Shown here piece by piece: positions 575 through 61,116 of a stretch of DNA of 64,000 bases; the stretch's first letter is position 1, and every line of letters begins with the position of its first letter. The DNA comes from a virus: positions 60,704 to 124,703 of IMG/VR virus record IMGVR_UViG_3300034152_001291, one strand, 5' to 3'. The notes under the pieces are model-generated. The model was given only the letters and a program-made list of their open reading frames with translations. It was not told the DNA's origin and did not search any database. The translations under genes were made by a program, and so were the position numbers.

Positions 575-3187
575 ATGATCACCGACGAAGGTCTTCTGAT
601 CACGCCTCTGGGGATGGACGTTCCCGAGTGGGGCCCGACGGCCATCCCGCTCCACCCCCGCGCCATGGAGAAGATCGCGTCGGGCATCTACATCCCGGAT
701 CGTCTCCTGGAGTTCATGGACCAGGTTCGGCCGAGGGATGACGGCCGCTACGTTCTTTTGCACGCGATCGGGGCGGGAGAGTATTGGGGATGTTTTCTGC
801 CGGGCTCCCCTGTATTGACGGAAAGCGGTAGGTACCTTCCCATCGAAAAGATCTCTAAGGGGATGCGGGTGATGGGCCGCAGCGGCCTTTTCAGGGAAGT
901 CCTCACTACATGGGAATACCGTCATCACCGTAGCGGTGTCCGGATCTCGGTGGAAGGTCTTGTCGATGATATAGGAACAACCCCAAACCACGAATTTCTC
1001 TCCCTCTCACATGAGGAGATTCTGTGCGCAAGAGATCGGACTGCGAGGTGTATTCCGGAGACGCAGGGCGCTCAAGGTATCTGCAAACGCCCCCAGTCGG
1101 TCGCTTGCGCCAAGAAGCCCAGGATCCTGACCGGGAAGTGGAGGCGTGCCGATAGCCTTGCCTTGAAGGATTTTCTGCTGTGCTCCATTCCGAAGCACGA
1201 CGCGCCTGCAATCTTCACCGAGGCGGAGGCTCGAGTAGTCGGTCTCTGGGTTGCTGACGGCAATTTCGTGTCGAATGGTGGTAGTGTCGACCTGGAGTTC
1301 TCAGTCTCCGATTCCGAGGCCTATCTGATCGACGACCTTCGGGCTCTCGGGTCTCCCCAGGTTTATAGAGGGCATGGGGCTTGTAAGTCTGTCCGGTTGA
1401 GGAACCACGAATTAGTGTCCAGAATCTATCGGCTGTTCGGCGAGTATTCTCATGGTAAACGGATTCCCGGAGACTTCGCCCGTCAGCCGGAGAACGTCAT
1501 ACTGGCTTTCCTTTCCGGCTACTTCGACGGCGATGGTTCTCAAAATCTGAAGGATGGCAGCGCCTACGCCCACACTGTCTCGAAGGATCTGGCTCTCGGA
1601 GTTCAGAGGCTTCTTTGGTCCGTCAGGATTCCGTCCACTGTCTGTCCCGCTCCGAAGGCCTATCATGTTCATTTCTCGCTCAGTAGAGGTAGAAGTCTGG
1701 CCGAGAAGTGTCGGAAATTCCGGAGGCACGCTCCGAAAGGACGGCCGCGTTACAGGCAGTTTTTCATCGATGACTACGTTTGTCTTCCGATTCGAAAGAT
1801 GGAGAGATTCGAGATCGACGGCCCGGTCTACGATCTCGAAGTGGAAGAAGAGCACACTTATAACGTGGCTCAAGTCGTCTGTCACAACAGCAACAAAAAT
1901 TCGGACTACTTCCCCGAGTGGAGTCTGAAGGGCGAGGAGATGCCTCCGGATGTGAAGGAGTACATCCGGGAGCACCGTCTGCCGATTCCGATCGAGTACG
2001 GGCACAAGACGTTCGAGAGGTACGGGTATCCTTACTTCCATCACAACAACCACGACCCGATCCATTCGATCGGCGAGCGAGTCTGCTGCTCGGCCTACAA
2101 CGACAGGATGCACCGGGTCGAGCTGATCGTTTTCATCCTGAAGAGAAAGGCCCCAGATGTGATTCGAAGGATCGACCGGGGCGAGCCGGTTCCCTGGTCA
2201 ATGGGGGCCAAGTTGCCTTTCGACGTGTGCGTGGTTTGCCGCCACCCGGCCCGGAAGAGGAGCGACTACTGTGAGCACCTTCGAAGCATGCTGGGGAGGA
2301 TTCTTCCTGACGGTCAGAGGGTTTTCTCCCTGAACTACTTCCCCAGGTTCTTCGACATCAGCGTGGTGAGCGTTCCGGCGGACCGCAGTGCCTACTCCTT
2401 GAAGAAGGTCGCCTCCTATCTCCAGGAAGGGAAGGCCAGGGTGGTCTGGACCCCGGGCATGGACCACGCGTCGGTAGAGCCGGTCCCCGTGGGAGGTTCA
2501 GAAGAGATGGAAAAGTTCGCCGGCATGCTCGACTACCTGGCGAGCGGAGGGGAGAAGTCCGCGGACATCGAGAAAGAGGTTCCGGCCCAGGAGCCCGCCA
2601 AGGACCTCGGAGAGAGTCCGATCCACCCTGATCTCTGGAAGGTCCTCTACGACATGGCGGCCAAGGATCGCGCCGGGACCCCCGAGATGGAGGGCGGTCT
2701 CCTCTCCAGCCTGAGGAGCGAACCCCTGAGAAAGGCCCTGACCGCCCTCACCTCCCTGGGGATCATGTTGAAGCCCAGGGAGGCTGACAGCCTGATCGGG
2801 GATCAGGAAATGCCAGACGGACTTGACGAAGAGGAACCTTCCTCTAAACTGTTAGATGAGTTGACGGGGCTGGTTCCGGAGCGATCCATGGTCGAGCCTC
2901 ATTTCTCGATCAGGATCATCCGGATTCGACGTCCGGATTCGTCCCCTTCGGACATCGTCAAGGAAGGGGGCGCCTACGACAGGTACCTGAAGTGGCTGAG
3001 ATCGATCGACCTCGAGAAGTTCGCGGAACTGGCGGAGCGTCCCGAGGTCGAGGCCGCGATGGCCGGGAAGGCGCTGAAAGAGAAAAGCCTGAACTTCCTG
3101 GACAAGACGGCCGGAAGGGACTTCGGTCCTTTCCTTCCTTTCGTCGCAGCCATGATGGTCGAGTCGGATCTCCGACCAACCCCGTAG
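575..3187 (+). CDS. Prohead (capsid maturation) protease interrupted by an intein
   Basis: Spliced extein reads GEYWG|SNKNSDYF...HHNN...WSMGAKLPFDVCVVC...YCEH...FFDISVVSVPAD, the HK97/assemblin-type protease pattern of large phages; lies upstream of capsid genes. Confidence 0.75.
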   Translation: MITDEGLLITPLGMDVPEWGPTAIPLHPRAMEKIASGIYIPDRLLEFMDQVRPRDDGRYVLLHAIGAGEYWGCFLPGSPVLTESGRYLPIEKISKGMRVMGRSGLFREVLTTWEYRHHRSGVRISVEGLVDDIGTTPNHEFLSLSHEEILCARDRTARCIPETQGAQGICKRPQSVACAKKPRILTGKWRRADSLALKDFLLCSIPKHDAPAIFTEAEARVVGLWVADGNFVSNGGSVDLEFSVSDSEAYLIDDLRALGSPQVYRGHGACKSVRLRNHELVSRIYRLFGEYSHGKRIPGDFARQPENVILAFLSGYFDGDGSQNLKDGSAYAHTVSKDLALGVQRLLWSVRIPSTVCPAPKAYHVHFSLSRGRSLAEKCRKFRRHAPKGRPRYRQFFIDDYVCLPIRKMERFEIDGPVYDLEVEEEHTYNVAQVVCHNSNKNSDYFPEWSLKGEEMPPDVKEYIREHRLPIPIEYGHKTFERYGYPYFHHNNHDPIHSIGERVCCSAYNDRMHRVELIVFILKRKAPDVIRRIDRGEPVPWSMGAKLPFDVCVVCRHPARKRSDYCEHLRSMLGRILPDGQRVFSLNYFPRFFDISVVSVPADRSAYSLKKVASYLQEGKARVVWTPGMDHASVEPVPVGGSEEMEKFAGMLDYLASGGEKSADIEKEVPAQEPAKDLGESPIHPDLWKVLYDMAAKDRAGTPEMEGGLLSSLRSEPLRKALTALTSLGIMLKPREADSLIGDQEMPDGLDEEEPSSKLLDELTGLVPERSMVEPHFSIRIIRIRRPDSSPSDIVKEGGAYDRYLKWLRSIDLEKFAELAERPEVEAAMAGKALKEKSLNFLDKTAGRDFGPFLPFVAAMMVESDLRPTP
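791..1888 (+). mobile_element. Intein (366 aa) with LAGLIDADG homing endonuclease, in prohead protease
   Basis: Starts CFLPGSPV, ends VYDLEVEEEHTYNVAQVVCHN followed by Ser; LAGLIDADG-like motifs VGLWVADG and FLSGYFDGDG. Confidence 0.93.
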
Positions 3188-3227
3188 AACGGAGGTGAGA
3201 AGGTCTCAACCTTCACAAGGAGGACCC

Positions 3228-3635
3228 ATGAAACTGGACTTCGAAAAGCTGATGACCGAGATCAGGACCAAAGGCCTCGACAAGAAGGCCGAGGCCCAGG
3301 GAGGTCTCGCCGGGGAAGACGAAGCGATGCAGAAGATCGCCGAGGACCTGGTCCATTCCGGCAAAATCTTCGGCCGCGCCCTGGTCGACGGTCTCCTCGA
3401 GAAGGCCGCGGAAGCCCCCGTCGGCGCGACGGGAGCGGCGTCCTCGTCCGAAGGCGACCCGGGGAACGACGACAGCCTCTGGAAGAAGATCTCCGACAAG
3501 GTGATGAACTTCCAGGGCCACGAGTCGGCGGGCTCCGCTCCTTCGGTGCCAGGCACCAATCCCAACGTGGTCGCCGAGAGCACCCAGCCGGCCCAGGAGA
3601 AGAAACCGAATCCGCCGGAACCCACCGGGGGGTAG
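3228..3635 (+). CDS. Hypothetical head/scaffold-region protein
   Basis: AGGAGG SD before ATG 3228; several K-x-A motifs. Confidence 0.7.
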   Translation: MKLDFEKLMTEIRTKGLDKKAEAQGGLAGEDEAMQKIAEDLVHSGKIFGRALVDGLLEKAAEAPVGATGAASSSEGDPGNDDSLWKKISDKVMNFQGHESAGSAPSVPGTNPNVVAESTQPAQEKKPNPPEPTGG

Positions 3636-3669
3636 GTTCTCTTCCCCGCGAACCGGGAGGACTGGCTGC

Positions 3670-3882
3670 ATGATCGACATGAAGAAATTGGCGGAAGCGT
3701 TCAAGTCCGGGTCTCGTTTTCTGGACGACGACGAGACCGTCCTTCTCGGCTCCGCCGTCGAGACGATCGCCCTCGAGAAGAAGGCAGGAAGACTGGAGGG
3801 GTTCGAATCGATCGATGAGAAGGGGATCGTGCTGCTGGGAGCGGCAGTCATGGACGACGTTCTGAGGAGTGTCTCAACATGA
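3670..3882 (+). CDS. Small hypothetical head-region protein
   Basis: GGGAGG SD; ATGA overlap with next gene. Confidence 0.6.
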   Translation: MIDMKKLAEAFKSGSRFLDDDETVLLGSAVETIALEKKAGRLEGFESIDEKGIVLLGAAVMDDVLRSVST

Positions 3883-28706: not shown

Positions 28707-29117
28707 TCACTCCTTCTTGTTCATCTTCCCGTCCAGGGTGTCCCGGAGGACTTGGCCGAGACGATTCAGAACTGACCTCATCATGATCTTGTCTTTTCCC
28801 AGCACGATCCTCAGGAACGGGAAATCGTACTTCAGGCAGCGCCAGGTCACGCCGGCGTCTCCGTCTTCAGGGGTGAAGACGACGTCATCCATGGAGAGAT
28901 GAGGGGCGAACCGGTCGAGGACGAGGGATAGATCTTCGAGAAGAGGTTCTACGTCGTACCACATTGTGGATTGTGTAGGCTTCGGGCGCTTGTCATCGAT
29001 CTTCTCGAATCTCGAGAGGCCGATATTCCTCTGGTAGCGGAACGTGTTGATGGTCACGCTTCCGCCGGTCTGGATGTGGGCCCCGCACAGAGCCAGGAAG
29101 AGATCCTTCTCCATCAT
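28707..29117 (-). CDS. Hypothetical protein
   Basis: Coupled to polA stop. Confidence 0.55.
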   Translation of the reverse strand: MMEKDLFLALCGAHIQTGGSVTINTFRYQRNIGLSRFEKIDDKRPKPTQSTMWYDVEPLLEDLSLVLDRFAPHLSMDDVVFTPEDGDAGVTWRCLKYDFPFLRIVLGKDKIMMRSVLNRLGQVLRDTLDGKMNKKE

Positions 29118-32100
29118 CGCCCTCCAGTTCTCAGGTACTCCTCAACCGACATCGTGTCGGGCTCGGATCGGGCCGTCCGATACTGCCGGTAGTCGGAGAC
29201 GTACTTTGACGCCCAGACCCTCTGGGCATCGGACAGCATCGCGACGGAAGGCTTGATTCCGGTCTCGGCCGGAGGGACGGATCCTACCTCGGGAACGTCA
29301 TCGTTGTCCTTCTCGCTCCAGTCGTCGCAGACCTTCACGGATGCGAGAACCGGAACGACGATGTCGAACCAAGGAAGCTCCATGATGTACTTGGTCAGGA
29401 CGGCGATGTCTTCTGCCAGACTCTCCGGCACGTCGAGCATGATCTCGTCGTGAACCTGGAGGACGATCTTGGAATCGCCGAACGCCCCTGACCTCACGAT
29501 GTTCGCGTAGACCGACGAGATGATGCACTTCAAGAAATCGGCCGCGCTTCCCTGGATGATCGAGTTGAAGATCTTACCAGGCTGCACGTCGTCCTTCGGA
29601 TTGAAGTGGCGCTGCCGGCCGGATACGAGCGTGAACTTATGGACACCCCTGAGCCACTGCTCCTCGAGGTCCTCGATCGTCTCGGGGATTTTCACGTACA
29701 GACGCATGAATGCGTTTATGAACTTCGTCGACGATTGAACGTCGTAGCTCATGTCCGGGAGGAAGAGTCCCGCGTACCGTGCGAAGCCTTCGGCACCCAA
29801 GCCGTACATCAACCCGAAATTCAGATTGTTGTGGCCCAGGAGACCTCCTTGGAGATAGAGGTGGTCATCGTTTTCGATGTGAAAATCGTAGACGGTCCGC
29901 CTGCCCGCATCGATGACAAGTCGAACTTCGTCTTCGATCTTTCGAGCCCGCTTACAGACCTTGGCGGCTCGTGCCTCGAGTCTCGCTTTCTTGTTCTGCT
30001 CTCGAAGGGGGATTTCGTCGTTTGCAGTTTCAAACCCGGGAGCAAGAAGATGCAGACGGTAGTACCACCGTCTGTACGTCTTGTTCCATGACGGTTCGAT
30101 GCTTATCGGGCAGCCGATGGATCGGAGCAGAACGGCGATCTGTCCGATGAAGATGGGATCCTTCTGGGTGATGCTCACGTCGACGCCTACCGTCCCATCC
30201 GTGTCTATGAGTCCGGCCAGATAGGCGCAGATGATTCGGCGCCCTCCTTCGACGACCCACCAGGGAACACGCATGTCCTTGTTCCTGCCCTTGACGAGGC
30301 CGAGATCGGCCAGAAGGCGCACGACCGTTCTTGATCCGAGGTAGGTGTATCTGAGATCCCCTGAACGGGAAGGATTCAAGCCGATCTTCTTGCATGCTTC
30401 GCTCACGGTGCATCGCCACGGCGCGTACCTGTCGTCGCTCCCATGGGTGATGCAGCAGGCATGATCATTGGTCATGGACCCATCCCCGTGGAACAAGCCG
30501 GCGAAGTAGGCCCAGTCCTCGTTCAGAGCCAGGGATGCTCCTCGTTCTTCGATTCGTCGGGTGAACGGATTGACGCGAACCGTCCTGGGGTGCGTGTCTC
30601 TGATGATCGGAATTTCCGCGACGGGAATCTTCATGCCCGGCTTGAGATGCCTGGCCTCGATGAGATAGCCGTCCTCGGTTTTCCAGCGGTGGTCGTCCGT
30701 ACAGCATACGACGCCTCTTTTGGTGACGACGATTCTGCACGGCCTGTCGTGTCGGACCAGGCCCTGCCTGGACTTCACGAATCCGCCGCGGCCGTCTGCG
30801 AGGTCGATCGGAGGTATGGATCGGTGTTCGTCGGGCTCGATTCCTACGAGGATCGATTCGATCAATCGAAGCGTCCCGTCGGCGTGGACAATCGTGGAGC
30901 CGTCCAGACATTTTGCCAGCTTCCTTCCGATGTCGAAACCGACGATCTCGGAGACGGCTCGGCGCGTTGTTTCGTGGACGTCACCCGTGTAGTAGAGGAT
31001 GTTGTTGTGGACCGCCCGCTCGCTGTAGATCTTCAGGAAGACAGGGTCCCTCGTTACGTAGGCGATGAGCCTGAGTTCGATCTGGGAGAGGTCGGCACAG
31101 ATGAGCTTCCGCCCTTTCGCCGCGTTGAACACCCACCGAATCTTCGGGCCTAGGCCCTGGATCCTCTCGTCGTATTCCTTCGGTTTCTTCCGCGACGGGA
31201 TATTCTGGAGGTTCGGGTTGCTCGAGGAGGCGCGGCCCGTGACGGCCCCCACCGGGTTGAACCTGGCGAAGATCCGATGTTCCGGGTCCTGGAGGGATCT
31301 CTCGAGCAGTTTCACGACGTAGGTCGACCGCAACTTCGTGATCGACCTGTAGTTCAGGATCGCCTGGGCGATCGGGTGCTTGAGCCTCGATAAGATGTGG
31401 ACGTTCGTCTTGCGCTTTCCGCCGCTGTAGTCCGGGAGCCGGAGAACGTCATAGAGGATGTGCCCGACCTGGTCGGTCGAGTTGGGGTTGAACTCCGTGT
31501 GGGCGAGGTTGAACAGGTCCGCCTCGAATTCCTCGATCAGAGGATCGAAGACCGCGTCGAGTTCCTGGAGACGCTCGGGCTCCACGTGGATGCCGGCAGC
31601 CTCCATCGCAGCGGCGCCGAAGACCGACTGGATCTCCCGCTCGGCCCAGTCGGGGATCCCCTCCTCGTAGATCCTGTTTCGGCAGTAGTAGTAGAGCCGC
31701 AGGGTTTGCTTGGCGTCGTCACAGGCGTAGGTCCTCTTGTCCCGGTCGGCCTCGGCTCTCAGGTGGACGATCGATCCCTGAAGGTCGTCGATTTGGTTTT
31801 GGATCTTCTCGCGGAGTGCCTCCCGCACCTGCTCCCCGTACCCGCTCTCCACGTAGAGATCGATCTTTTCCTTGAGGTTCGCGATCTTCTCGCGGTTCTC
31901 TTTTTTCCGGGCGTTGTACTTGCTCTTGAGCTCCGCGAGAAGCCGCCGTCTTTCGGCCTCTCCCTCTTTCCTCAGACGGTCGTCGATCTCGCCCTTCTGC
32001 CTCTCGGCGTCTGCGATGACGCGCTCGGCAGCCTGCATCTGCCGGATAGCGTTCGAGTAGAGGAATGCCTCCTCGTACTCGACCATGTCGTGCCGGAAGA

Positions 32101-32497
32101 CCTTCTTCACGAGAAATTTCAGGCCGTGGGGAATCTCCTCGTTCAGGAGCCAGGAGAGTACCAGAGTGTCAATGACCTTGGCTCTCACCTGATGGATGTC
32201 GTAGATGCCGCGGTGGTGGAGAACTCTGAGGTCGAACTGGACGATGTTGTGGCCGACGACCCGGAGACCGGGATTGGCCAGGCACTGCCTGGTGAAGTCC
32301 ACGGCCTCCGGTGTCGGGTCCACGGCGATGGAGTAGTAGTCGCTCCCCCGTCCCGCCGCAAGGGCGATGAGCTCGAGATGGGCCTTGCGGGGGTTCTTGC
32401 TTTCCTTGGGATCTTCCCCGGGGGGAGCTTTGGTCTCGAGGTCGATCGAGACGACCCCGTGGCGTTCGATTCTTTTTCTGAGCTCTCCGAACTTCAT
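29114..32497 (-). CDS. polA: Family A DNA polymerase with 3'-5' exonuclease, intein in motif B
   Basis: ExoI DLET, ExoII HNIVQFD, ExoIII YACDDA; TGRASS..PNLQN; motif A DLSQIELR; motif B RKLAK|NLNFGLMYG; motif C VHDE. Confidence 0.95.
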   Translation of the reverse strand: MKFGELRKRIERHGVVSIDLETKAPPGEDPKESKNPRKAHLELIALAAGRGSDYYSIAVDPTPEAVDFTRQCLANPGLRVVGHNIVQFDLRVLHHRGIYDIHQVRAKVIDTLVLSWLLNEEIPHGLKFLVKKVFRHDMVEYEEAFLYSNAIRQMQAAERVIADAERQKGEIDDRLRKEGEAERRRLLAELKSKYNARKKENREKIANLKEKIDLYVESGYGEQVREALREKIQNQIDDLQGSIVHLRAEADRDKRTYACDDAKQTLRLYYYCRNRIYEEGIPDWAEREIQSVFGAAAMEAAGIHVEPERLQELDAVFDPLIEEFEADLFNLAHTEFNPNSTDQVGHILYDVLRLPDYSGGKRKTNVHILSRLKHPIAQAILNYRSITKLRSTYVVKLLERSLQDPEHRIFARFNPVGAVTGRASSSNPNLQNIPSRKKPKEYDERIQGLGPKIRWVFNAAKGRKLICADLSQIELRLIAYVTRDPVFLKIYSERAVHNNILYYTGDVHETTRRAVSEIVGFDIGRKLAKCLDGSTIVHADGTLRLIESILVGIEPDEHRSIPPIDLADGRGGFVKSRQGLVRHDRPCRIVVTKRGVVCCTDDHRWKTEDGYLIEARHLKPGMKIPVAEIPIIRDTHPRTVRVNPFTRRIEERGASLALNEDWAYFAGLFHGDGSMTNDHACCITHGSDDRYAPWRCTVSEACKKIGLNPSRSGDLRYTYLGSRTVVRLLADLGLVKGRNKDMRVPWWVVEGGRRIICAYLAGLIDTDGTVGVDVSITQKDPIFIGQIAVLLRSIGCPISIEPSWNKTYRRWYYRLHLLAPGFETANDEIPLREQNKKARLEARAAKVCKRARKIEDEVRLVIDAGRRTVYDFHIENDDHLYLQGGLLGHNNLNFGLMYGLGAEGFARYAGLFLPDMSYDVQSSTKFINAFMRLYVKIPETIEDLEEQWLRGVHKFTLVSGRQRHFNPKDDVQPGKIFNSIIQGSAADFLKCIISSVYANIVRSGAFGDSKIVLQVHDEIMLDVPESLAEDIAVLTKYIMELPWFDIVVPVLASVKVCDDWSEKDNDDVPEVGSVPPAETGIKPSVAMLSDAQRVWASKYVSDYRQYRTARSEPDTMSVEEYLRTGGR
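29828..30910 (-). mobile_element. Intein (361 aa) with LAGLIDADG endonuclease, in PolA
   Basis: CLDGST...CTDDHRW...AGLFHGDG...LAGLIDTDG...VYDF...GHN; +1 residue is Asn. Confidence 0.92.
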
Positions 32498-32506
32498 CGC
32501 TCCTCG

Positions 32507-34066
32507 TTAGAGAGGTTTCTGTTCGAACGGGTTGTAGGCATTCGACTCGTTCAGGTCTTCCAGGTCCTCGATGGAGGGCTGGCCCTGCATCTGGGTGGGC
32601 GTGGGGGCCTGCTGAGGCATCTGGCCCTGCTGGGGCTGTTGCTGCCCCTGGGAGGTCTGGAACATGGTCCCACGGGGCCCTGCCATATTGGCAGAGGAGG
32701 GACCGGCCTGCTGGCCGAACTGCGGCTGGGCGGGGCCGAATCCTTGCGCGTGGGCGGGCGCAGGCCGCTGCTGGGACTGGTTCTGGCCCTGGAAGGACTG
32801 GTTGCCGGGGCCGGGGCCCTGAAAACCGCTCTGAGGGGCAAAACCTTGTTGACCCTGGTCGACATTCTGCCCGAACCCGGGCCCGGAGAGTCCTTGCTGG
32901 GTCGGCTGTTGGCCGAAGGGATTCTGCCCCGTCTGCGGCCTCTGCTGAGGCTGGAAGCCCTGCTGGGACTGGGGGCCCTGCGGGGACTGCTGGAAGCCGC
33001 CCTGGCTCTGCTGCTGAGGGTTCTGGGAGAAGCCGCCTTGGCTCTGCTGCTGGAAACCCTGCTGGGAACCGCCCTGGAACATCGTCCCCCTGGAGCTCTG
33101 GGCCTGGTTCATGGGGCGGCCGAAGACCTCGAGAGCGCCATCCTCGGAGTAGGTCCACCGCCCGCCGGTGTCGTGGGTGTTGCAGAGGTTGATGTGGGTC
33201 GTCAGGATCTGCTTCAGGGATTCATCGTCCATCAGAGGCCACCCCTGCTCCAGATCGGGGATCTGGTTGAGGAGGGGCTGGCAGTTCGCCGGATTCTCGT
33301 AGCCCCTGAAGATCCAGGAGTCTCCGATTCTCGGCGTCCGGTCCCCCTGCGAGCGGCTGACCGAGAAGCGCGCGAACTGGCGCGTCGAGCGCCCGCCGGT
33401 CTGGCTCGCGTAGGCGTCGATGCTCTTCCCGATGTGGGCGAGCGTCCCGCTGTCGGAGCAGACGAGCAGCCGGATCATGTAGGAATACTGTTGGCCGCTG
33501 ATGATGGCGGGTCGGAGGTCGACGACCGGCCAGACCATGTAGAAGCGGGGGTCCCGCGTCAGGACCTTGCAGACCGGACACGGACGACCCTGGGGATTCC
33601 GGATGTACTGGGTCCCGTCGGCGCTGAGCATCCAGTAGACGCACCGAACGGTCTCGACATCGGGGAAGCTGTGCCCGCCGGCCTGGACCCACTTGCGGAA
33701 GACCTCATGGGCCAGGATTCTGCTGCCCTCCGTCAGGAGGATGAGGTCGGTGCTCTGTCCTTTCTTGAGGTAGAAGTCCCGGAGGTTCCCCCTGAGCCTC
33801 CAGATCTGGTTCCAGATCGCGCTGCCAGTCGAGACGTTGCGTCGCTTCGACTCCTCGCTTGCCGCCAGCATCGCTTGGGTCTCGGGGGACACCTGGGCCT
33901 GGGTCGAGAACTGCGGGCCGCCCTGCTGGGGTTGCGGGCCGCCCTGCTGGAACTGCCCGGCCTGCTGGAACTGACCTCCCTGCGGAGAGCCGTGTCCCTG
34001 GAACTGGCCCTGCTGATTCGGAAAGGGCTGGCCCTGTCCGAAGCTCTGGTTGGGATTTCCGTTCAT
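32507..34066 (-). CDS. Probable ssDNA-binding protein with long Gln/Gly-rich arms
   Basis: Central domain with H..C..CPVC and aromatic-rich strands, acidic C-terminal tip; between primase and polymerase. Confidence 0.55.
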   Translation of the reverse strand: MNGNPNQSFGQGQPFPNQQGQFQGHGSPQGGQFQQAGQFQQGGPQPQQGGPQFSTQAQVSPETQAMLAASEESKRRNVSTGSAIWNQIWRLRGNLRDFYLKKGQSTDLILLTEGSRILAHEVFRKWVQAGGHSFPDVETVRCVYWMLSADGTQYIRNPQGRPCPVCKVLTRDPRFYMVWPVVDLRPAIISGQQYSYMIRLLVCSDSGTLAHIGKSIDAYASQTGGRSTRQFARFSVSRSQGDRTPRIGDSWIFRGYENPANCQPLLNQIPDLEQGWPLMDDESLKQILTTHINLCNTHDTGGRWTYSEDGALEVFGRPMNQAQSSRGTMFQGGSQQGFQQQSQGGFSQNPQQQSQGGFQQSPQGPQSQQGFQPQQRPQTGQNPFGQQPTQQGLSGPGFGQNVDQGQQGFAPQSGFQGPGPGNQSFQGQNQSQQRPAPAHAQGFGPAQPQFGQQAGPSSANMAGPRGTMFQTSQGQQQPQQGQMPQQAPTPTQMQGQPSIEDLEDLNESNAYNPFEQKPL

Positions 34067-60431: not shown

Positions 60432-61116
60432 CGAGAAGGATCTGATTCGGCGGGCGAAGGCGGGCGATCCCATCGCCAAGAACGAGCTGATCCAGAAGTA
60501 CCGGCCGATGCTTCGGCACAAGATCCAGGCCTACAGCCGGGCGCCGGTTCCCATGGCGGCGCTTCAGGGCGAAGCCATGCGTCTCCTTCTCCATGCCATC
60601 GAGCGGTTCGATCCCTCCAAGAACATCCAGTTCAAGACCTTCCTCGATCACAACCTCCGGGGGCTCTACCGCTACACCTCCCGGGCCAAGAACGTGGCTC
60701 GGATTCCCGAGCATCAGACGCTCCAGATCACGACGTTCAAGAACGTCAAGTCGATCCTCGAATCCAAGAAGGGGAGGGAGCCGACCGCGTACGAGGTCGC
60801 CGATGCGCTCGCCTGGTCTCCGGCCCAGGTCGTCAAGATGGAGACGGCGTTGAGCCGCAGGGATATCGCCGCTTCCGGCATCGAAGCCATGCACGGACGG
60901 GAGAAATTCGAGGAGAAGATGGAAGACCTGATGGAGTACGAATACTTCGAGATGATGCCCGAAGAGAAGATTGTCTTCGACTACACGCTCGGGCGGCACG
61001 GGAAGCCCCGTCTCGAGGACGTCAAGGCGATGTCCAGGAGGACGGGGCTGTCGATTGACAAGGTCTACGAGATCAAGAGAAACATCGCGCAGAGGATTTC
61101 CAAGAGGATAGGATGA
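60418..61116 (+). CDS. Second sigma-70 family sigma factor (group 3-like)
   Basis: AKAGD..AKNELIQKY, AIERFDPSK..QFKTF, GREPT..EVA, C-terminal HTH. Confidence 0.85.
   Translation: MAANDEKDLIRRAKAGDPIAKNELIQKYRPMLRHKIQAYSRAPVPMAALQGEAMRLLLHAIERFDPSKNIQFKTFLDHNLRGLYRYTSRAKNVARIPEHQTLQITTFKNVKSILESKKGREPTAYEVADALAWSPAQVVKMETALSRRDIAASGIEAMHGREKFEEKMEDLMEYEYFEMMPEEKIVFDYTLGRHGKPRLEDVKAMSRRTGLSIDKVYEIKRNIAQRISKRIG

Follow-up and report, generated by a model that had tools for sequence, protein, structure and literature searches.

In inteins as they have been described, the residue that opens the C-extein (the +1 residue) is Cys, Ser or Thr, and this residue performs two of the four splicing steps (PMC4031507, PMC10663303, PMC7664689). 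The closest described systems that lack it are the type A bacterial intein-like (BIL) domains, for which the work of Dassa 2004 and Aranko 2013 and the structure 2lwy are cited in PMC4031507 and PMC7664689; the route proposed for these domains runs from a thioester through Asn cyclisation to attack by a free amino group (PMC4031507). In this study we describe an intein of 361 residues that is encoded in a stretch of 64,000 nucleotides (nt) of a virus record (IMG/VR record IMGVR_UViG_3300034152_001291, positions 60,704 to 124,703; hereafter the window), where it splits motif B of a family A DNA polymerase and is followed by Asn at +1. It shares with type A BIL domains an N-terminal Cys, a C-terminal His-Asn and the lack of a +1 nucleophile (PMC4031507). 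Unlike BIL domains it carries a full LAGLIDADG domain, splits motif B, has empty-site alleles and lies inside a true intein family. In a 2003 description by Amitai, BIL domains are said to come without a homing endonuclease and to sit in non-conserved regions of bacterial proteins, not in conserved active-site motifs. By descent the present element is a class 1 LAGLIDADG intein, but not a canonical class 1 intein, and its likeness to BIL domains lies in the chemistry only. Our search of the full-text literature, to which subscription journals are largely external, found no natural intein described as having Asn, or another non-nucleophile, at +1. What we see here is a diverse lineage of intact, endonuclease-bearing inteins that breaks the +1 rule in the catalytic motif of a replicative polymerase and, judged by comparison of its members, is kept by selection.

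The precursor reads GRKLAK/CLDGSTIV...LYLQGGLLGHN/NLNFGLMYG (slashes mark splice junctions here and below), so that the insertion parts the Lys of motif B from the N-x-N-F-G half of this motif. The original prediction, made from this DNA before our analysis, had placed the junctions at RKLAK/CLDG and LLGHN/NLNFGLMYG, with the codons CAC AAC AAT CTG AAT TTC across the second, and the sequence and the scripted coordinates agree with it. It had also named Asn as a +1 residue that leaves the intein without a Cys, Ser or Thr nucleophile, and the codon at 29825-29827 is indeed AAT; the stretch NLNFGLMYG that follows the intein has no Cys, Ser or Thr at +1 or in the next eight residues. Excision of 29828-30910 restores motif B as it had proposed, giving RKLAK-NLNFG as found in six intein-free relatives. 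A junction register shifted by one residue either way was rejected on inspection, because it puts Leu at +1 or loses the motif B Lys. A word-indexed protein search gave 53 relatives, or 54 proteins with the query, and in 44 of these 54 an intein lies at exactly the same site, followed by Asn in 30, Ser in 7, Thr in 6 and Cys in 1. Counts out of 30 (the +1 Asn set) and out of 14 (the others) in the following refer to these inteins. The features of the gene are:

29114..32497, minus strand: family A DNA polymerase precursor gene, 1127 amino acids plus stop, with one intein (list of open reading frames with translation, Pfam)
30911..32497, minus strand: N-extein, amino acids 1-529, with SIDLET as exonuclease motif, LICADLSQIELR as motif A and RKLAK (30911-30925) as the opening half of motif B
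29828..30910, minus strand: intein, 361 amino acids (530-890), a HINT splicing domain into which a double-motif LAGLIDADG homing endonuclease is inserted
30908..30910, minus strand: Cys1 codon (block A, CLDGST; precursor Cys530), Cys in 30/30 +1 Asn inteins and 14/14 others
30689..30700, minus strand: block B, TDDH (intein Thr71 and His74), Thr in 30/30 and His in 30/30 of the +1 Asn set
30479..30514, minus strand: LAGLIDADG motif 1, WAYFAGLFHGDG, intein residues 133-144, G-D-G unchanged in 30/30 and 14/14
30194..30226, minus strand: LAGLIDADG motif 2, AYLAGLIDTDG, intein residues 229-239; the Pfam LAGLIDADG_3 match spans residues 756-811
29828..29893, minus strand: blocks F and G, VYDFHIENDDHLYLQGGLLGHN, ending in His360-Asn361, with D342, H350, H360 and N361 each in 30/30
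29828..29830, minus strand: terminal Asn codon, AAC
29825..29827, minus strand: +1 codon AAT (Asn), which opens the C-extein
29117..29827, minus strand: C-extein, amino acids 891-1127, with NLNFGLMYG (29801-29827) as the closing half of motif B and QVHDE (29444-29458) as motif C

The insert, from a large uncultured phage, is a genuine intein of class 1 layout in a replicative family A DNA polymerase. The class 1 marks Cys1, block B Thr-x-x-His, block F Asp/His, block G His-Asn and the HINT fold are all present; at +1, where the class requires Cys, Ser or Thr, there is Asn. An AlphaFold2 model of the intein with 30-residue flanks, computed from a 38-row alignment, reached a mean predicted local distance difference test score (pLDDT) of 88.2 and a predicted template modelling score (pTM) of 0.87. 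Foldseek matched this model to the solved inteins TliVMA (7qsu/7qss), PhoVMA (7qst), PI-PfuI (1dq3) and PI-SceI (1ef0/1vde) at E values of 8e-20 to 8e-12, with probability 1.00 over about 400 columns at 14-20% identity, and the endonuclease part to I-DmoI and I-Tsp061I; phmmer against the PDB sequences returned no chain at E <= 0.01. The predicted fold thus has the architecture of TliVMA, PhoVMA, PI-PfuI and PI-SceI, a HINT domain with a double LAGLIDADG domain. These inteins presumably precede Cys or another nucleophile, and we take their hosts to be archaeal and yeast VMA and ribonucleotide reductase (RNR) genes, not phage PolA. The endonuclease itself is of the double-motif LAGLIDADG type, with two acidic-ended motifs and paired alpha-beta-beta-alpha-beta-beta-alpha subdomains, and both motifs, WAYFAGLFHGDG and AYLAGLIDTDG, are as intact as had been predicted. 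In the D-T-D-G of motif 2, Asp236, Asp238 and Gly239 occur in 30/30 and Thr237 in 29/30 of the +1 Asn set, and all four in 14/14 of the others.

To see how general the +1 Asn is, consider the wider sample. An exhaustive search of representatives gave 666 matches at E <= 1e-3, of which the best 150 were used; pooled with the first set they made 190 proteins, which were aligned to a profile of the insertion site. Both junction columns are filled in 152 of the 190, and the +1 residue is Thr in 71, Ser in 38, Asn in 32 and Cys in 11, and nothing else. A few of the 152 are in other host contexts, and a length and motif filter leaves 135 (Thr 66, Ser 32, Asn 31, Cys 6). The canonical inteins of PolA motif B (K/S, K/T and K/C, all metagenomic) have the same insertion point, blocks A, B, F and G and the endonuclease, are 27-44% identical over intein plus flanks and form one family with the window intein on the tree; the difference is that 120 of the 152 are then followed by Ser, Thr or Cys, and the window intein and 31 others by Asn. 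A tblastn search of 50,697 phage records found one similar intein, in an uncultured 485-kb phage, and the IMG/VR locus that matches it (L004) has +1 Ser. Loci were few in the scans of viral and metagenome contigs (4, 2 and 7).

The GHN/N junction itself was found in at least 33 relatives; partial proteins (P0058) and one more locus (L015) are further carriers of it. Asn is encoded at +1 in nine DNA loci, by AAT in 4 (the window, L008/L013, L011 and L015) and by AAC in 5 (L003/L007, L009, L010, L012 and L014); in this count L003 and L007 stand for a single contig, L008 and L013 seem to be one sequence present in two collections, and L009 and L010 are near-copies with 99.5% identity. Since both Asn codons are used at a conserved Asn, it is the amino acid and not the base that is kept. 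Asn also follows the motif B Lys where the intein is absent. Nine relatives have no intein in motif B, and eight of them read K-N-x-N-F at this point, P0054 reading K-G-V-N-F; six have RKLAK-NLNFG outright (P0037, P0045, P0046, P0047, P0050 and P0052) and two differ slightly (P0051, RKLAKNINFA; P0053, RKIAKNCNFG). In P0043, whose intein lies six residues further downstream, Asn follows the Lys as well, as in 8 of the 9 intein-free relatives. Hence it may be the extein that dictates Asn at +1. The original prediction had called for homologs with KNxNFG both with and without the intein, and both kinds exist (8 intein-free with K-N-x-N-F, and GHN/N in 30 of 44). It would have fallen had all homologs carried Ser or Thr and this allele failed to splice; the closest homologs have neither, and 30 of the 44 inteins at the site are followed by Asn.

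The host protein is a family A DNA polymerase in which motifs A, B and C and a 3'-5' exonuclease motif are all present. The 1127-residue open reading frame (P0001) matches the Pfam families DNA_pol_A (1.7e-66), DNA_pol_A_exo1 (the 3'-5' exonuclease, 2e-06) and LAGLIDADG_3 (8.6e-07), and in a profile search of the genome the DNA_pol_A profile was matched in two pieces, 2-196 and 213-381, with the interruption between 196 and 213. When the precursor was aligned with 17 +1 Asn relatives, D19, E21, D469, R525 and K529 of the N-extein and N893, F894, Y898, H1016, D1017 and E1018 of the C-extein were unchanged, so that these 17 precursors retain the Asp/Glu of the exonuclease, the Asp of motif A, the Arg, Lys, Asn, Phe and Tyr of motif B and the His-Asp-Glu of motif C. 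In the intein, C1, T71, H74, D342, H350, H360 and N361 are each found in 30/30 of the +1 Asn inteins of the first set, and pairwise identity within the +1 Asn subfamily ranges from 39 to 99% with a median of 51%. Where synonymous divergence could be estimated (Nei-Gojobori, seven loci), the ratio of nonsynonymous to synonymous substitution rates (dN/dS) of the intein is 0.05-0.29; for L007 against L009 dN is 0.109 and dS 1.02, and for L008 against L012 dN is 0.095 and dS 1.91. Several pairs are saturated and give no ratio, and the values of further pairs, whose dS lies well over 1, are not to be relied on.

So far as sequence comparison among these relatives can tell, the +1 Asn state is maintained by selection, and the precursor must therefore mature into a working polymerase. 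The residues for forming the thioester and for cyclising Asn are all in place, and the +1 side-chain nucleophile is missing. Such maturation would have to bypass step 2 of the canonical pathway, and the polymerase probably matures by unusual chemistry. In the original prediction the choice lay between non-canonical splicing and a cleaved or inactive polymerase. This alternative is supported as a whole, except that its inactive branch has now become unlikely, because catalytic residues are conserved in both intein and exteins, dN/dS is low and the clade is diverse.

All +1 Asn inteins, as far as the trees tell, belong to one supported subfamily, which is marked by a block G of the form Y-L-Q-G-G-x-x-G-H-N. 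In a FastTree phylogeny of 135 full inteins all 31 +1 Asn rows fall into one starred set of 33, the other two rows being +1 Ser (P0019 and P0028), and this set lies within a starred set of 36, deep among canonical Ser, Thr and Cys inteins. A quick IQ-TREE search with 50 rows recovered the 33-row clade with a Shimodaira-Hasegawa-like approximate likelihood ratio test (SH-aLRT) support of 94, inside a 36-row clade with SH-aLRT 97. When P0056-P0059 were added the subfamily grew to 40 rows with support 98, 33 with Asn and 7 with Ser, Thr or Cys; on this enlarged tree the distribution of Asn takes 5 changes, and starred branches force at least 3 of them. We had considered that +1 Asn arose once and cleanly, and gave this up when the four added rows led to these 5 changes. 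Canonical examples are found inside the subfamily (P0018, P0035, P0061) and outside it (P0034, P0036, P0039). P0056 (1197 amino acids, intein at residues 580-939) belongs to the same subfamily and is inserted one residue downstream, AKN/CLDG...GHN/CNFG, which makes its +1 residue Cys; on the tree it falls within +1 Asn inteins (support 99), its insertion point having moved by one codon. More than once the lineage has changed between Asn and a nucleophilic residue at +1, and it would work with either. Another arrangement is seen in P0057 (2247 amino acids, about 1216-2056), where two inteins stand one Asn apart, AK/intein 1...GHN/N/CVSGDSMV...intein 2...SLAD/CNFG; by its spacing the second is apparently Asp-terminated with +1 Cys, and the host motif would be K-N-C-N-F-G.

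Two of the loci bear on mobility. L009 (nt 1395-3823) and L011 (nt 1-2429) are 93-100% identical over at least 680 nt of the N-extein and the whole intein, 90% identical in the 60-nt interval around the +1 codon (L009 nt 3260) and 57-83% identical in the intervals beyond; the +1 codon is AAC in L009 and AAT in L011. This alignment places a breakpoint of recombination no more than about 60 nt from the C-terminal splice junction. Homing with a short co-conversion tract would produce such a breakpoint, which is consistent with homing, though not proof of it. The pattern suggests that the intein can enter K/N alleles directly, and the intein is probably still mobile.

The missing +1 nucleophile is not a general defect of the phage or of the protein. 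Two further inteins of the same phage are both canonical, with +1 Ser and +1 Thr, and in 6 of 8 multi-intein relatives examined the same polymerase carries a second intein with Cys1 and an [HK]-N/S end. Were the +1 Asn intein already lethal to the protein, there would be little point in retaining this canonical second one intact. The second PolA site, G-R-L-S/C...[HK]-N/S-(S or A)-D-P, is occupied in P0013, P0015, P0020, P0024, P0030 and P0033 and is a recurrent insertion point; its inserts measure 215-504 amino acids and end in HN/S in five cases and in KN/S in P0033. In the remaining two of the eight, P0029 and P0055, there are long insertions without clear intein ends. As to the phage's own canonical inteins, the one with +1 Ser is a LAGLIDADG intein of 366 amino acids at 791-1888 of the window, in the 870-residue open reading frame P0191 (575-3187, plus strand), and reads YWG/CFLPGS...VVCHN/SNK; P0191 has no PHROG match and no Pfam match outside the intein. 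The one with +1 Thr lies upstream of the window in the same virus record (L020, G000:C1:41000-52000), where a LAGLIDADG intein stands directly after the N-x-D-F-N-G-D metal-binding motif of a 2496-residue fused beta/beta'-like RNA polymerase reading frame (NGDS/CSPDT...IVTHN/TVGIH).

What, then, becomes of the precursor? The reading that we favour, and to which we give a probability of roughly 45%, is splicing without a side-chain nucleophile, in which a freed alpha-amine would attack the Cys1 thioester. Its main rival, which we consider unlikely, is cleavage only: the thioester would be hydrolysed, Asn361 would cyclise, and the polymerase would consist of two non-covalent chains broken in motif B. 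Cleavage only needs exactly the residues found conserved (Cys1, block B and His-Asn), it is described as prevailing in HINT domains that lack a +1 nucleophile (PMC4031507, PMC7664689), and split phage polymerases exist according to PMC13648687. Yet intein-free relatives are single chains at this point, and the same lineage switches to and from hosts with +1 Ser or Cys, where ligation is presumed; the break would moreover fall between the motif B Lys and the part of the helix with the conserved Phe and Tyr and create a new Lys carboxylate, which from general knowledge of family A enzymes speaks against it. A considerably smaller chance is given to Asn-specific splicing, a variant of step 2 without any bypass, in which the side-chain amide of Asn+1 would attack the thioester and a branched imide would pass to the peptide bond after cyclisation of Asn361. 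Here it counts that Asn is the only non-canonical +1 residue among the 152 inteins at the site, and that the amide nitrogen of the terminal Asn is the nucleophile in canonical step 3 (PMC10663303). On the other hand, the +1 Asn cases form one lineage and Asn is preferred here by the host polymerase as such, so that the extein, not the chemistry, may dictate it, and by general chemistry an amide nitrogen is weak as an intermolecular nucleophile.

It might also be that the insert is never removed and that an unspliced polymerase of 1127 amino acids works with the intein as a permanent domain. Nothing speaks directly for this beyond the fact that the +1 nucleophile is needed by splicing chemistry alone. 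Cys1, TxxH, the block F Asp/His and the His-Asn could then drift, yet they are found in 30/30 at a median identity of 51%, and a domain of 361 residues within motif B would be hard to square with nucleotide binding; we hold this to be very improbable. Hardly any weight is left for an artefact or decay, that is, an AGT or ACT misread as AAT, or a dying gene whose allele was recently inactivated. AAT is only one transition away from AGT (Ser), but the Asn recurs in the at least 33 relatives, which come from independent assemblies and use both codons, so that a base-calling error is ruled out as the explanation; decay is likewise already contradicted, by a frame open over 1127 amino acids and by the low dN/dS. 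Equally remote is recoding, by which AAY would be edited or misread as Ser (for example A-to-I, to give AGY), or another factor would supply the nucleophile, with canonical splicing as the result. Editing of the middle A would indeed give Ser, and beyond this we found nothing in its favour: the third base and the flanking codons vary among loci (CTG, CTC, CTA, GCT, GCG or GCA after AAT or AAC), and no conserved RNA context at the +1 codon was apparent in this comparison of codons.

Under the favoured splicing without a side-chain nucleophile, Cys1 would make the N-terminal thioester in step 1. In step 2 Asn361 would cyclise with the help of His360, and the C-terminal junction would be cut. In step 3 the alpha-amine of Asn+1, held near by the HINT fold and the polymerase halves, would attack the thioester to give the Lys-Asn peptide bond. 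The branched (thio)ester intermediate would be skipped, and the route would be the one proposed for type A BIL domains. The original prediction had stated that some bacterial intein-like domains were reported to ligate in the absence of this nucleophile, in agreement with PMC4031507. Both halves of the polymerase should remain together after C-terminal cleavage, a matter of plausibility and not evidence. The alpha-amine of an N-terminal Asn has one of the lowest pKa values, and this too makes the attack more plausible without being evidence for it. We regard it as an even bet that true mobile inteins can splice without a side-chain nucleophile in the C-extein, with either the alpha-amine or the Asn amide acting on the Cys1 thioester, as a fourth mechanistic class.

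Several points weigh against splicing by the freed alpha-amine. All its support is comparative, and Cys1 and His-Asn would be kept equally if there were only cleavage at both ends. Type A BIL domains yield more cleavage than splicing products, as reported in PMC4031507 and PMC7664689, and where the +1 residue is deliberately mutated such that extein ligation is suppressed, N-terminal cleavage is the outcome most often observed (PMC10663303); given this dominance of cleavage, efficient aminolysis would need further properties. No residue was found to set the +1 Asn members apart and so serve as a mark of such an adaptation. Moreover, the 124.7-kb virus record of which the window is a part is linear and about 63% complete; it contains no second PolA match and no match to PolB or DnaE, and a second polymerase might lie elsewhere in the phage genome. 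With this record at about 63% and two related virus records at 12% and 48%, the claim that the protein is the only polymerase of the phage was dropped.

Three candidates for a compensating or diagnostic feature were rejected. Arg65 occurs in 31/31 of the +1 Asn inteins as against Y, Q, Q, H, D and R in six sisters, yet the canonical outgroups P0034, P0036, P0039 and P0063 have it too, as does P0056 with its +1 Cys. Thr71 as opposed to Ser is not diagnostic of +1 Asn inteins. An internal nucleophile as in class 3 is unsupported, since Cys69 and Cys70 of the window intein are not conserved in the clade.

If the exteins were indeed ligated, the mechanistic classification of inteins would need a new class, and this PolA subfamily, switching between +1 Asn and +1 Ser or Cys hosts, would be its natural and evolutionarily successful example. 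Software that requires a +1 nucleophile would then miss real inteins, and protein engineering would acquire a natural scaffold with which to ligate tracelessly at Asn, perhaps also at other non-nucleophilic junctions. If there were cleavage only, the phage would replicate with a polymerase that has a nick within motif B, an unexpected state in its own right.

The polymerase gene has helicase, primase and DnaB-like genes as neighbours. Directly upstream of it, at 32507-34066 on the minus strand, lies an open reading frame of 519 amino acids for which there was no Pfam or PHROG match; it has long low-complexity ends rich in Gln, Gly and Pro around a folded-looking core.

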